Assembly (NCBI GenBank): GCA_965205025.1
Contig: CBDBFU010000002.1
Span: 356,089 to 420,088, forward strand
Length of the DNA stretch: 64,000 bases
From: Candidatus Poribacteria bacterium
Lineage (GTDB): Bacteria > Poribacteria > WGA-4E > WGA-3G
Reading direction: 5' to 3'
Part shown: in pieces, positions 1,054 through 41,207 of the stretch
How positions within the stretch are numbered: the first letter of the stretch is position 1
Layout: the number at the start of each line of letters is the position of its first letter
Translations under genes and position numbers: made by a program
The notes under the pieces: generated by a model
Database searches by the model: none
What the model saw: the letters and a program-made list of their open reading frames with translations, nothing else
Told to the model about the DNA's origin: nothing

Positions 1054-1081
1054 TGAGACTTTTTCATCTCAGTATGCGTCA
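1054..1081 (+). promoter_or_regulatory. ECF-type promoter TGAGAC-N17-CGTCA
   Basis: Motif recurs at equivalent positions upstream of all nine sigma genes and resembles ECF consensus of the TGAAAC...CGTC type. Confidence 0.7.
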
Positions 1082-1138
1082 CTATATTATGAATATGTCA
1101 ATACACAACCATACACATTTCATGTACAGAGGTATCTG

Positions 1139-4054
1139 ATGAAAAATGAAGATGTTGAACTCATTAACCGTGTCCTTGATGGCGATGATGATGCATTCTC
1201 TGTCTTAGTGAATAAATATCAGAAATCAGTTCACACACTTGTTTGGCGGAAGATTGAAGATTTTCACATAGCTGAGGATATCACTCAGGAAACATTCCTA
1301 AAAGCATATCAAGAACTGGCATCCCTGAAAAAACCACAACGATTTTCCAGTTGGCTATATGTAATTGCGACAAATCACAGTAACACATGGCTACGTAAAA
1401 GACGTTTATCCATGCAATCAATAGAGAATACAAGTGATGTACAGATAGAAAATGCAACATACTCAGAATATATAAGCTCGGAAAACGAGAAAACAGTTGC
1501 TGAAGTACAGCGTGAAGTCGTCAAGAAAATACTTGGACAGTTACAGGAAAGTGATAGAACTGTCATGACTCTTTACTACCTCGGGGAAATGAGCTATGAG
1601 GAAATCAGCGAGTTTTTAGGAATATCGGTGAGTGCCATTAAGAACCGACTTTACCGTGCACGACAACGCTTAAAGAAGGAAGAACCAATGATAAGAAAAG
1701 CTTTAGACCATTTCAATATCACACCAAATCTCACAGAAAATATAATGAGCGAAATTTCAAAAACGAAACAGGTGACACCATCGGGTAGTAAACCATTTAT
1801 CCCGTGGGTGCTTGCTGCTTCAAGTACTCTCCTTATTGTGTTCATGCTTGGAATAAATAGTCACTTCTTCGTCCGTTTCCAAAAACCTTATAGTTTAGAT
1901 GCGCAGGCTGAAATGCAGGTAGAACTTGTTGACACTCCAATTGTGCTTAACCTCGAATCCGAATCAGATCACCCAACACAACTAAAAAATGCTAACCTAA
2001 GTGAAAATAACACCTCTAATCGGCAGCCTGATAACATCTCAGTATCAGCGGCAGAAGCACAATCAGAGAAAATAAATAAACATTACTCACAATGGAAACT
2101 ACCCAAAAAGGCAAAAGCGCGCTTAGGAAAGGGTGGTATTAAGGTGATTCAATATTCACCGGATGGAACGCTACTTGCTGTGGGTACGAATATCGGTGTG
2201 TGGTTGTACGATGTGGAAACTGGTGAAGAGAAAACCTTATTTCCAGGAATGTGCCAATCTATTGCTTTTTCACCTGACAGTCGCTTCTTGGCAAATGGGG
2301 GTGGTAGATCATCAGGAACAAGAATCAATTTGTGGGAAATTGCTACGGAACGTGAAGTATTACTCACGGATATGTATGATTCTGCTTCAACGCTAAAATT
2401 CACCTCAGATGGGAAAACACTTATCAGTATTAGCAATTTAGGGGATACAATTACCAGATCAGATGTTGAAACAGGAAAAGGAATTATGAAGCATCTCAAA
2501 ACTGGGAGATTAAACGCTTTTGGTCCAGATATTCTTGATGCTGGTGTTTATGCAATCACACATGATAAAGTCGCAATTGGAAGGAGGAATGGAAAGATCC
2601 AAATACGGGACACATCAACTCATAAGGAATTATTCAATCTCAACGGACATTCAAATACGTTTAGGAAAAACAGCAAAGACCAAATCTTAGCATTGACATT
2701 TTCATACGACGGTACGCGCCTTGCCAGTGGAAGTACCGATACAACAGTACGTTTATGGGATACTGATAAACCTGATGACAGTATCATACTTCAAAAACAT
2801 ACAGGTTGGACAAATGTCTTATCGTTTTCACCGAACGGAAAGATGCTTGCCAGTGGCAGTACGGATAAAACTGTACAGTTGTGGGATACAACTACAGGAA
2901 AAATCCTCGCTACATTTACTGGACATATCAACGGCATTACAGCATTAGCGTTTTCGCCGGATAGCACAACGCTTGCCAGCGGCAGCACAGACGGCACGAT
3001 TAAGTTCTGGCATACCGAAACTGGAAATCCATTAACTAATCGTATCACGGGGCACACGCAATGGACAAGAGCAGCAACCTTCTTTAAAGACAGTTCCACG
3101 CTTGCGAGTGTAGCATTTAATGGCGTCATTACACTTTGGGATGTGAAAACAATGCAAAAGTCTACTGTTCATACTGTAGGACATCGAGATTTGGTCTCGA
3201 CATTAGCGTTTACACCGGATGGTACGAAACTTGTTAGTGTAGGAGCAGATGGGAGTGCAATCTTCGAATCGGCTTCTGGACATCCTTTTTCTTCGTGGCA
3301 ACCGGATCATCTGGTTAGTTTGACTGATGTTCGTACGGGTCGCGAAGTAACAATCTTAAACTTTAGTAGAGGCATCGCACATATGATTTTTTCTCCTAAT
3401 GGAAAGACAGTAGCATTTGGTAGTTTAGGGGAAATTCATTTGTGGAATACGGAAACCGGTAATGAACTGAACATCCGCATGGATAATCAGGAAACCAATA
3501 TCCACAATATGTCATTCGTCACTGTCTTAGCATTTTCCCCAGACGGCACAACCCTTGTTAGCGGAACTGATCAGGGTGATATCCAAGGGTGGAATGTTGA
3601 AACAGGAAAAGCATTACCAGTATTTGCAAAATTGAAAGAACAAAAGGACTTGGATAATATTTCAGCACTTAGTTTTGCACCTGATGGCACCTTGCTTGCT
3701 GCCGGAGCACATAATCGGATTCATATATGGGAAGTGAATACTGGGAATAAGCTTCTATCAGTTAAGACCGAACATAAGCGAGGTAAAATGATCTTCCAAA
3801 GCTACCCAGAACCGTTGGTATTTTCACCAGATGGAACGATTCTTGTTAACGGACATATCCACGGTGCAATTCAATTGTGGGACGTTACAACTGGCAATCA
3901 GATCGCTGTCCTTGATGGACACACACAGAAAGTGGAGACGTTGAATTTTTCACCTGATGGCAAAACTCTCGTTAGTACTGCCGCAGATGGTACAATCCTC
4001 TTGTGGGATTGGGATGAAGTCCTTGCTGATTCATCCAAAAGCAAACAACAGTAA
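1139..4054 (+). CDS. ECF sigma-70 factor fused to a TM helix and WD40 propellers (sigma gene 1)
   Basis: Sigma2 (DFHIAEDITQETFLKAY..F.SWLYVIA) and sigma4 (MSYEEISEFLG..AIKNRLYRAR); hydrophobic segment PWVLAASSTLLIVFMLGI; many GH...FSPDG..LASGS.D.TV.LWD repeats. ATG 1139 follows AGAGGT. Confidence 0.92.
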   Translation: MKNEDVELINRVLDGDDDAFSVLVNKYQKSVHTLVWRKIEDFHIAEDITQETFLKAYQELASLKKPQRFSSWLYVIATNHSNTWLRKRRLSMQSIENTSDVQIENATYSEYISSENEKTVAEVQREVVKKILGQLQESDRTVMTLYYLGEMSYEEISEFLGISVSAIKNRLYRARQRLKKEEPMIRKALDHFNITPNLTENIMSEISKTKQVTPSGSKPFIPWVLAASSTLLIVFMLGINSHFFVRFQKPYSLDAQAEMQVELVDTPIVLNLESESDHPTQLKNANLSENNTSNRQPDNISVSAAEAQSEKINKHYSQWKLPKKAKARLGKGGIKVIQYSPDGTLLAVGTNIGVWLYDVETGEEKTLFPGMCQSIAFSPDSRFLANGGGRSSGTRINLWEIATEREVLLTDMYDSASTLKFTSDGKTLISISNLGDTITRSDVETGKGIMKHLKTGRLNAFGPDILDAGVYAITHDKVAIGRRNGKIQIRDTSTHKELFNLNGHSNTFRKNSKDQILALTFSYDGTRLASGSTDTTVRLWDTDKPDDSIILQKHTGWTNVLSFSPNGKMLASGSTDKTVQLWDTTTGKILATFTGHINGITALAFSPDSTTLASGSTDGTIKFWHTETGNPLTNRITGHTQWTRAATFFKDSSTLASVAFNGVITLWDVKTMQKSTVHTVGHRDLVSTLAFTPDGTKLVSVGADGSAIFESASGHPFSSWQPDHLVSLTDVRTGREVTILNFSRGIAHMIFSPNGKTVAFGSLGEIHLWNTETGNELNIRMDNQETNIHNMSFVTVLAFSPDGTTLVSGTDQGDIQGWNVETGKALPVFAKLKEQKDLDNISALSFAPDGTLLAAGAHNRIHIWEVNTGNKLLSVKTEHKRGKMIFQSYPEPLVFSPDGTILVNGHIHGAIQLWDVTTGNQIAVLDGHTQKVETLNFSPDGKTLVSTAADGTILLWDWDEVLADSSKSKQQ

Positions 4055-4254
4055 AACAGGTTATAGAAGAGGTAACTACCTGCAGATTGCAAGTGCTTGC
4101 CTCCTTATCCTTGATTCACTCAAAAGTCCAATTAAGTCGCACACCTCACGTTAAACCTCCGCGCTTACTGTCATCTCCAGACTATATTTCAGTTTCCACA
4201 TGGACAGAGTTTTAATGAACCTACCTCAAAATAATCTCCTGTCAATTAGCAGTT

Positions 4255-40600: not shown

Positions 40601-41017
40601 CTGAACCCCGTAAATAAACACGCTTTAACTCCTAATATTTATGCTGGAGCATTTACACCTGATAGCAAAATACTGGCAGTTGGGGGAAGCTATAAAAACC
40701 ACTCGCTTTTCTTATGGGATATTGTCAACCAATCAAGTATTGCAATACTGAAAGGACATGAATATCCTGTATGTCGAATGGCATTTTCACCAGATAATAC
40801 AATCCTTGCCAGCGGTGATGCGGGAGGTGATATTCATTTATGGAGCATGCAGGATTTCCGTCATCTTGCAAAATTTAAATCCCCTGGTGGATATATCAAC
40901 ACAATCGTATTTTCGACTGACAGTAAAACCTTCGCCACTACAAATGGACATGCAGGAAGTTATTCTCTCATAGATCAAGGTGGTATTATCTACCTATGGG
41001 ATGTTCCATCTAAGTAA
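37610..41017 (+). CDS. ECF sigma-TM-divergent WD40 fusion (sigma gene 8)
   Basis: Sigma domain near-identical to gene 9, TM/linker near-identical to gene 6, WD40 repeats with large insertions. Confidence 0.9.
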   Translation: MKRNDVDLIHSILSGDDSAFSELVQRYQKQVHALAWRKIGDFHIAEEITQDTFLKVYQRLSTLKKPHRFAGWLYVIATHCCQDWLRKKQISAETLENFNSEDLQPEAYSRYVAEQQEKTNVEEQRKVVKKLLSTLPESERTVITLYYFGEMTCEKISEFLGVSTNTIKSRLRRARNRLKNEEAMIREAITHFQISPTLTENIMQEVSRLEPTTPAASKPLIPWAIGASSVVFIVLLLGFGSQYLGLFQKPYSLEAQTETIVELVDAQVIQNLDADPNVLNQLNQQNADRHGRENADDEKSNQASGDIGDYTRWNLPEGAKRKFGKGRITDIQLSPDSTRIAIADTGGIWLYDVESGDEIARLTEHTRKTEQAMPRVLFSPDGKSFASTGYDNIIRIYETKSGKNLFTLNMPIGPARLFEFKKDGSWSTNIISADEVESFRFIPNAKTRSMEIQGGRHLQSIKYLPDGKTLVIQNSNGTIWLWDINTGEQIATFSPNLPVPDLDTYQTLMQLEKLPVPARWTLATNAFVNTTVGGIHVIIAFAIGDKNGTISIRDGHTDRQISTLSREDQSKKNDVPGVDLPIVDRVKRPGTVRQIPNKLPHDWVKWITKIEFSPDGKTLVSWSHHRIVDRLNGKWSARQGPTELWDVASGNRLGILPPYEMRWSDVDVLFTQDGKTLAINGSGGCAIWDITTQSEIALFQGELDVIFSGNSRQFALIKNEEMAIWDITTQSEIASINTVPGQYSFKQKNSAFFRQKPNHTAISWSGDIIAALDQFGSVDLWQSKKSSELRTLTTSYTYPFTTLAFSSDGKTLASGDGSGNIQIWDRNTGTVKTTLTSPTKKYIGGLTFSTDNATLMSESIGIIEEWNITTGKTVNTYTIQGAAAHEVSGADSHNSVSSADYIFSIPTGVTTLTPFGGKIAGHIWSPPGKMTRDSGTFKVWDIPTSELLCTVIDETFIFRTLAFTYNGKTFATYGNGGVSLWNTHTGEKLTTFNIPKDLNPVNKHALTPNIYAGAFTPDSKILAVGGSYKNHSLFLWDIVNQSSIAILKGHEYPVCRMAFSPDNTILASGDAGGDIHLWSMQDFRHLAKFKSPGGYINTIVFSTDSKTFATTNGHAGSYSLIDQGGIIYLWDVPSK

Positions 41018-41178
41018 TGAAAATTCGGTGGGATACCTACCTCTTAGGATTAGTGGACAATCCAGTTTTAAATTAGCCTACCATACATGATGTTGTATAC
41101 ACTAAACATACAAATCTCACTAAATTGACGCCTATGGTTCTTGTTTTATTCAACCCCAATTAACTATTTTCTATATTC

Positions 41179-41207
41179 TGCACCCAATTTTCACTTAACC
41201 TACGTCT
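41179..41207 (+). promoter_or_regulatory. ECF-type promoter TGCACC-N18-CGTCT
   Basis: Recurrent motif. Confidence 0.65.

Follow-up and report, generated by a model that had tools for sequence, protein, structure and literature searches.

A group of nine genes for membrane-anchored extracytoplasmic function (ECF) sigma factors was analysed, together with the promoter-like sites in front of them, in a stretch of 64,000 nucleotides (hereafter the window, meaning the whole stretch; G000:C2:356089-420088) from the 5.66-Mb genome of a Candidatus Poribacteria sponge symbiont. The nine plus-strand genes, g1 to g9, encode proteins whose N-terminal ~205 residues, which form the sigma domains, are pairwise 59-95% identical. 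The analysis made it probable that these are ECF sigma factors carrying ECF promoters of their own type, in which the region 4.2 helix and the -35 box have changed together along the published contact geometry. The proteins are predicted to consist of sigma2 and sigma4, one transmembrane (TM) helix and then a beta-propeller, which is presumably extracytoplasmic. Each promoter would most likely be recognised by its own product or by paralogs with the same helix, resulting in positive autoregulation, and the sigma domain would presumably be released from the membrane to act.

ECF promoters are bipartite, with a -35 element of AAC-like ending, a spacer of ~16-18 nt and a -10 element containing CGT. 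The window was searched with the pattern xGxxx[CT]-N17/18-C[GA]TC-[AT], and exactly one match was found upstream of each of the nine start codons, with the hexamer 53-85 nt away, which agreed with the first-pass annotation of this DNA. All on the plus strand, the sites are TGAGAC-N17-CGTC for g1 (1054..1080, hexamer 85 nt before ATG 1139), TGAGAC-N18-CATC for g2 (4455..4482, 76 nt before ATG 4531), TGAGAT-N17-CGTC for g3 (9917..9943, 75 nt before ATG 9992), CGCGAC-N18-CGTC for g4 (13349..13376, 77 nt before ATG 13426), TGCACC-N18-CGTC for g5 (17946..17973, 53 nt before ATG 17999), TGCAAC-N18-CGTC for g6 (21192..21219, 79 nt before GTG 21271), TGAAAC-N17-CGTC for g7 (24228..24254, 74 nt before ATG 24302), and TGCACC-N18-CGTC for both g8 (37550..37577, 60 nt before ATG 37610) and g9 (41179..41206, 60 nt before ATG 41239), whose sites have the same sequence. 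The nine genes thus display six different hexamers, one of which is shared by g1 and g2 and another by g5, g8 and g9. The looser pattern TGNNNC-N17/18-CGTC was not enriched by count in the window (10 matches, 7.49 expected, at least 10 in 23 of 100 shuffles), and six of its 10 matches are the sites before g1, g5, g6, g7, g8 and g9; therefore, the significance of the sites comes from their position and not from their number. A scan of the window that ignored the -35 element (at least 11 bits) recovered six of the nine sites, with g1, g3 and g7 lost to the flank filter, and gave four weak extra sites, three of them within open reading frames (ORFs). With their bipartite build, a spacing of 17/18 nt, a CGTC box and their position relative to the start codon, the motifs resemble ECF promoters, as the first-pass annotation had supposed, and they are likely to function as such.

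The family to which the nine genes belong is large. A profile of the nine sigma domains revealed 48 full-length paralogs, plus fragments, in the genome of the window, and family matches were found in all 24 sampled genomes of the same genus (2-53 each) as well as in two of three other families of the order. The family-wide survey gave 150 listed and 813 further matches in 36 of 41 genomes (~960 in all). The sample analysed here comprised the genome of the window, all 119 matches of three complete genomes of the same genus, the best 47 of 115 matches in two other families (five genomes), and, from public contigs, 80 of the 507 stretches that were confirmed. Removal of duplicates left 294 of these 297 hits, and 150 nt or more upstream was available for 293; 247 of the latter scored at least 235 bits (46 dropped). 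Sites were called with a matrix in which the variable hexamer positions were given zero weight, and the bipartite ECF layout was found at all nine window sites and in 221 of the 247 family members, the 26 members without a confident site being dropped. The -35 elements of the family end in AAC, ACC, GAC, AAT or GAT, not in AAC throughout. The 40 promoters called in the genome of the window display nine hexamers, among which TGCACC (14) and TGCAAC (13) predominate. Variant hexamers are kept in relatives from many genomes (TGAGAC in 28 members, TGCAAT in 13, TGTAAC in 7, TGTGAC in 4), and the minority classes TGAGAC, CGCGAC, TGTAAC, TGAAAC, TGCAAT and TGCACG each go with a helix variant of their own.

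Whether the upstream regions were anchored at the hexamer or at CGTC, only three elements carried information, namely the hexamer with the AATTA before it, a run of TTT located 8-10 nt further downstream, and cgCGTCa; values in the spacer and flanks were about zero. A genome-wide search with a weight matrix at a threshold of at least 16 bits gave 56 hits compared with 17 in the reversed genome, an enrichment that is partly circular, as the matrix was trained on these same sites. Of the 56 hits, 31 fall in front of the 48 family genes at a distance of at most 300 nt, and four others precede broken family fragments. The remaining 21 hits show no excess over the 17 of the reversed genome, so no target outside the family can be named. 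Several further features of the sites were noted. Directly 5' of the hexamer, (g)cAGAATTA is conserved, with about 1 bit per base over AATTA (e.g. 13337-13348), and ACTATA..GTTGATATG recurs after the -10 box in several hexamer classes (e.g. 13377-13400); these two elements might form part of the start region or of the 5' untranslated region, or represent an UP-like element. The spacer is class-specific, being mostly 17 nt for TGAGAC, TGAAAC, TGTGAC and most TGCAAT sites and mostly 18 nt for TGCAAC, TGCACC, CGCGAC and TGTAAC sites.

The recognition helices of the nine genes translated exactly as the first-pass annotation had paired them with the hexamers. SAIKNRLYR (g1, nt 1631-1657) and AAIKNRLYR (g2, nt 5023-5049) go with TGAGAC, AAIRNRLYR (g3, nt 10484-10510) with TGAGAT, STIKTRLMR (g4, nt 13918-13944) with CGCGAC, NTVRSRLRR (g5, nt 18491-18517) and NTIKSRLRR (g8, nt 38102-38128; g9, nt 41731-41757) with TGCACC, GTIKSRLQR (g6, nt 21763-21789) with TGCAAC, and GAIKSRLHR (g7, nt 24794-24820) with TGAAAC. 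Two rules had been read from these pairings, namely that all N-R-L-Y helices have TGAGA and all N-T..S-R-L-R helices TGCACC; in the wider set they held as strong tendencies and not as absolutes, since x-x-[IV]-[KR]-N-R-L-Y-R was accompanied by TGAGA[CT] in 31 of 35 members and N-T-x-x-S-R-L-R-R by TGCACC in 69 of 71. The sigma domain of g5 is indeed diverged from those of g8 and g9, with 65-66% identity to them and 62-69% to the other genes. The TGCACC that g5 shares with them despite this divergence, which had been offered as a sign of the code, is most simply a retained state and not convergence, TGCACC being the commonest hexamer of the family (80 of 221 members).

To separate co-change from common descent, the main tree was built without alignment columns 161-180, so that the helix was left out, using FastTree and IQ-TREE, and a third tree was built from all columns. 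On the helix-free tree, hexamer and helix states were mostly clade-specific, as shared ancestry alone would give. Among the 221 members, 110 phylogenetically independent sister pairs with non-overlapping paths were defined; both hexamer and helix differed in 14 pairs, the helix only in 24, the hexamer only in five and neither in 67 (Fisher p 2.8e-4). Because divergence confounds this test, all 215 columns of the sigma domain were ranked by how well they tracked hexamer changes. On both the FastTree and the IQ-TREE trees, the three best columns for any hexamer change belonged to the recognition helix (c169, c172 and c168). Base 3 changed with c169 in five of the seven pairs changing c169 (p 2e-5) and base 6 with c168 in six of eight (p 1e-6), each being the top of the 215 columns on all three trees. 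Base 4 also tracked c169, and c169 remained first under stricter site thresholds. No helix column came out on top for bases 1 and 5 in this ranking; base 5 changed in only 5-7 sister pairs, and c172 was not their top column. In a strict independent-pairs test, c169/base 3 gave six pairs (4.2 changing the same way, 0 opposite, 1.8 without change), c168/base 6 eight (3.5, 0 and 4.5) and c172/base 5 eleven (3.8, ~0 and 7.2). Helix and -35 hexamer thus change together in a specific way that recurs from tree to tree, although the independent events behind this number only ~4-6 per pair. Loss of the correlation after phylogenetic correction in a larger set had been named in advance as counting against the code; with these 110 sister pairs and 215 columns, the correlation was kept.

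We take the AAC of TGCAAC to be positions -33 to -31 in the numbering of sigmaE, by which bases 3, 5 and 6 become -34, -32 and -31. The family helix aligns gap-free with region 4 of Escherichia coli sigmaE (2h27_A; GTVRSRIFR against NTVRSRLRR), and hence c168 corresponds to Arg171, c169 to Ser172 and c172 to Phe175. Region 4.2 would accordingly read the -35 element through the equivalents of Ser172 at base 3 (-34), Arg171 at base 6 (-31) and Phe175 at base 5 (-32). The residue-base associations were as follows. At c169, S was found with CA at bases 3-4 in 159 of 169 members, N with AG in 32 of 36 and L with TA in 7 of 7, while T occurred with TG, CG or TA and I with AA. At c168, K went with C at base 6 in 172 of 176 members and T with G in 3 of 3. 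At c172, R went with C at base 5 in 72 of 81 members, and other residues mostly with A. The weight falls mainly on the Ser172 equivalent (N/S/T/L/I) and the Arg171 equivalent (K/R/T), and the R-L-Y/R-L-R position that the first-pass annotation had stressed is a weaker contributor. Two neighbouring genes of one genome provide a minimal comparison: L085_195 pairs NTVKSRLHR with aagTGCAACct and L085_174 pairs NTVKIRLHR with aagTGAAACct, with the same flanks and -10 box, so that S-to-I in the helix is matched by C-to-A at base 3 only. In distant Poribacteria families, searched with a generic pattern, G at c169 (with K at c170) went with CATAAC in 7 of 8 members, T with [CA]AGAAC in 3 of 3, A or V with [CT]GTAAC in 3 of 3 and D with TCTGA[CT] in 5 of 5. 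In the subfamily of these distant families with Gln at c169, the generic pattern was present in 1 of 11 members and no ECF-type site was recognised.

Positions outside these three were also considered. Column c166 (the T169 equivalent, T or A) was tried as a reader of base 3 and rejected, with four independent pairs of which 0.3 changed the same way, 0.1 opposite and 3.7 were unchanged. Column c146 (Y/H/F in T-L-Y-Y-L-G, aa 146 of g1, region 4.1) was the top column for the two bases 3' of the hexamer (p 1e-4 and 7e-4), and may represent a further contact, with the -30/-29 bases. For the -10 box, changes of the G in CGTC had c83 as their second-best column, and the base two positions earlier was tracked best by c82 and third best by c83; the two columns lie in the S-N-T-W region of g1. 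In RpoE numbering, c83 is presumably Asn84, the -13/-12 reader in the scheme of Todor et al.

The accessible part of the study by Todor et al. (Todor, Osadnik, Campbell, Myers, Li, Donohue and Gross, PNAS 2020; PMC7776599) describes 41,665 ECF sigma factors with putative autoregulatory promoters and high mutual information at a few residue-base pairs. Saturation mutagenesis there showed that Arg171 sets -31 and Ser172 sets -34, a Phe175/-32 pair was modelled, and the three ECF sigma factors tested were very sensitive to single-base changes. As far as that part of the text goes, the same pairs emerged in the Poribacteria family, namely c168/base 6 and c169/base 3, with c172/base 5 as a weaker, tentative third; whereas the set of Todor et al. 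spans all bacteria, the signal here comes from within one young paralog family of one candidate phylum. One assignment differs, in that Arg at c172 (the 175 equivalent) goes with C at -32 here, whereas the text in question links Arg with -32T. Chemically, there would be nothing unusual in Arg contacting the G of the template strand. The idea that differing -35/-10 preferences create insulated channels and usable parts is likewise found in Rhodius et al. (Mol Syst Biol 2013; PMC3817407), who, in the portion consulted, report orthogonal ECF sigma/promoter sets for synthetic circuits. That work tested sigma factors drawn from various ECF groups and organisms, whereas the classes described here lie one or two bases apart within one family and are known from sequence. 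The readable code proposed by the first-pass annotation is therefore real and uses the same contact positions, but the code had already been published, as had its use in predicting regulons and in engineering (PMC7776599; PMC3817407).

Several observations weigh against the reading in which each promoter goes with the sigma factor encoded behind it. In a search for RNA runs over positions 13000-22900 of the window, none was listed. R at c168 is accompanied by T at base 6 in 15 of 41 members and by C in 26 of 41, the latter being exceptions; SAIKNRLYR occurs with TGAAAC (L021) and NTVKSRLRR with TGCAAC (C26 of the window's genome), and the helix NT[IV]KSRLHR pairs with both TGCAAC (12) and TGCACC (6). 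On the tree of all columns, c146, which lies outside the helix, tops the ranking for any hexamer change. Part of the base 6/c168 signal comes from lower-scoring TGCAAT sites, with two of three events at threshold 8, and the strict sign tests gave a median p of 0.125 for each residue-base pair, there being too few events. In addition, the site-calling matrix was built from the same family, and confident sites are lacking in 8 of the 48 paralogs of the window's genome and 26 of the 247 family members. In one rival explanation, promoter and sigma domain were copied as one cassette, so that the correlation would arise without a functional link and the -35 differences would be neutral. Such hitchhiking would fit the 95% identical block of g8 and g9, which spans from about -110 to +650 and holds both promoter and helix, the clade-specific distribution of most hexamer and helix states, and the strict independent-pair sign tests, which stay above 0.05. 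However, all 215 columns are co-inherited alike, and yet the best trackers of base 3 and base 6 are known base-contacting residues of the helix; moreover, variant hexamers are conserved across many genomes while spacer and flanks diverge. We therefore consider hitchhiking improbable. Far less credible still is the notion that the boxes are not promoters and represent some other signal of the duplicated 5' region, such as a repressor operator or an RNA element. The conserved AATTA before the hexamer and an inverted repeat, TGAGA...TCTCA, in the spacers of g1, g2 and g3 could be cited for it, but the repeat is present at only 7 of 28 TGAGAC and 1 of 3 TGAGAT sites and was rejected as an operator, being incidental; the bipartite build with its 17/18 spacing and CGTC box fits the ECF pattern, as does the start-codon distance, and a non-promoter signal would leave unexplained why the boxes change along with those residues of the encoded sigma factor that read DNA.

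A more serious competitor, though in our judgement still a doubtful one, accepts the sites as genuine ECF promoters but has them recognised by groups of paralogs, or by a single different sigma factor, so that a cross-activating network would take the place of insulated self-loops. The two hexamers TGCACC and TGCAAC account for 27 of the 40 promoters in the genome of the window, many paralogs have identical helices, the -10 box and spacing are nearly uniform, and ~20 short, unrelated stand-alone ECF sigma factors are encoded in the same genome. On the other hand, it is hard to explain under a foreign sigma factor why minority classes each come with their own helix variant, and the ECF sigma factors tested in the accessible part of Todor et al. 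(PMC7776599) responded strongly to single-base changes. We accordingly favour the reading in which the promoters are used by sigma factors of matching helix: during the radiation of the family to 48 paralogs, the helix and the -35 box would have changed together, yielding about nine -35 classes in the genome, and these classes, some of them a single base apart, probably insulate some of the feedback loops, with sizeable groups of paralogs still belonging to a single class. Since many paralogs share both box and helix, cross-activation within such groups is the default expectation. The first-pass annotation went too far in assigning each sigma gene its own promoter and in counting about five orthogonal channels, given that g1/g2 and g5/g8/g9 share hexamers and that the two commonest hexamers cover most promoters of this genome.

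The architecture of the nine proteins was deduced as follows. All are encoded on the plus strand and combine ECF sigma domains with a TM helix. WD40 propellers follow in g1 (1139..4054, TM at aa 221-239), g3 (9992..12919), g6 (21271..24009) and g8 (37610..41017), as well as in g7 (24302..28159), where an unassigned middle region is interposed; BNR/Sortilin-type propellers follow in g4 (13426..16521), g5 (17999..21016) and g9 (41239..44250); and g2 (4531..5931) ends after 466 aa without a propeller. Each protein has a single strongly hydrophobic stretch of 19 residues at ~aa 217-240 (Kyte-Doolittle 1.9-2.3). Among the best 25 Pfam matches per protein, Sigma70_r2, Sigma70_r4_2 and Sigma70_ECF were found in g2, g4, g5 and g9, and Sigma70_r2, r4 and r4_2 in g8, and those of g1, g3, g6 and g7 were beta-propeller families throughout. 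The N-terminal 330 residues of g1, g5 and g6 matched the NCBIfam model TIGR02937 (sigma70-ECF) with 100.9-104.5 bits (cut-off 42.9), and g3 and g7 were assigned to the ECF sigma factors by 62-78% identity to domain-matched genes of the window. For g1, g5 and g6, no NCBIfam equivalog model was above its cut-off, SigW NF007223 giving 101-125 bits (cut-off 209) and RpoE TIGR02939 giving 89-115 bits (cut-off 236). A GAGG-like ribosome site is located ahead of most of the nine start codons. For g1, the ORF list gives a TTG start at 1031, whereas ATG 1139 is supported by the alignment of the paralogs and by a GAGG ribosome site; with the TTG start, the promoter-like site would fall within the ORF.

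The best PDB and NCBIfam matches of the family are Bacillus subtilis SigW and E. coli RpoE (structures 5wuq, 6jhe, 2h27 and 1or7), whose helix, GTV[KR][ST]RI.R, aligns gap-free with that of the family. SigW and RpoE differ in being free-standing proteins of ~190 aa with separate anti-sigma factors. Related layouts are those of the C-terminally extended ECF sigma factors that, according to the part available of Pinto and da Fonseca (2020; PMC7671368), are duplicated in Planctomycetes, and ECF57, which a review (PMC8999054, available in part) describes as having WD40-like extensions and two conserved cysteines proposed to link sigma2 and sigma4. These proteins likewise combine a sigma2-sigma4 core with long and varied C-terminal regions, and the duplication of sigma factors with unrelated extensions is matched by g8 and g9. 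They differ from the genes described here in phylum, and in our set a TM helix follows the sigma domain in all nine. Within aa 1-205, the conserved cysteine pair that the available part of the review describes for ECF57 was not present in the nine genes: g1 has no cysteine, g2-g7 have one (position 81), and g8 and g9 have cysteines at 80, 81 and 153. The common block of g8 and g9 extends over 37500-38260 and 41130-41890, includes the promoter and is ~95% identical in the sigma domain; beyond ~+650, the two genes diverge into unrelated sensors, with a WD40 propeller in g8 and a BNR/Sortilin propeller in g9. The arrangement suggests that a cassette of promoter and sigma part was joined by recombination to different C-terminal domains, as has been proposed for Planctomycetes ECF sigma factors (PMC7671368). 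Our literature search found no paper linking Poribacteria with ECF sigma factors.

Other parts of the window were also inspected. Downstream of g2 lies an ORF without a Pfam match (6256-7977), which by eye resembles the middle region of g7, followed by a DDE_3/helix-turn-helix transposase ORF (8182-9369); the region 4531-9369 probably holds a family gene that was broken up close to an insertion sequence. Positions 1-687 encode the C-terminal end of a further BNR-type family member, whose last residues resemble the ends of g5 and g9 and whose sigma part lies outside the window. A membrane protein of 237 aa is encoded at 16556-17269, 35 nt after g4, with a near-identical copy at 32299-33012, and a homologue on contig C10 of the same genome (G000, ~16400-17200) has its own TGCAAC-N18-TGTC site (21.8 bits); this protein is a possible co-regulated partner of the sigma-propeller family. 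Three paralogs in tandem at 28381-31557 encode proteins of ~335 aa whose N-termini resemble signal peptides, and the first of them matches PD40 (TolB-like) beta-propeller repeats; no ECF-type site was detected before them by the -35-agnostic scan of the window at 11 bits or more.

The co-variation of ECF region 4.2 with the -35 element through autoregulatory promoters has been published and experimentally tested, and the present results introduce no new principle. They describe an unusually large family obeying the known ECF code at the same positions, and a clean natural case of it, in which dozens of young paralogs of one genome have a near-constant -10 box, spacing and flanks and sigma domains that are 60-95% identical, and single substitutions in the helix are matched by single substitutions in the -35 box, including a neighbouring pair that is one residue and one base apart. 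The family therefore offers a compact test set for the base changes needed to insulate paralogous sigma factors and for stepwise shifts of specificity. On a more speculative note, to which we would give a lesser chance of being right in full, a self-contained module of promoter, ECF sigma factor, TM helix and interchangeable propeller might have radiated to 20-50 copies per genome, with the 5' cassette recombined onto sensors and about nine -35/helix classes acting as insulation, and Arg175/-32C, Asn172/AG and Leu172/T might be new entries of the ECF code. The main output of each loop may then be the receptor itself, because few convincing sites exist outside the family's own genes. This large, undescribed expansion of membrane-tethered sigma-propeller fusions in Poribacteria may bear on the sensing of the host by uncultured symbionts.

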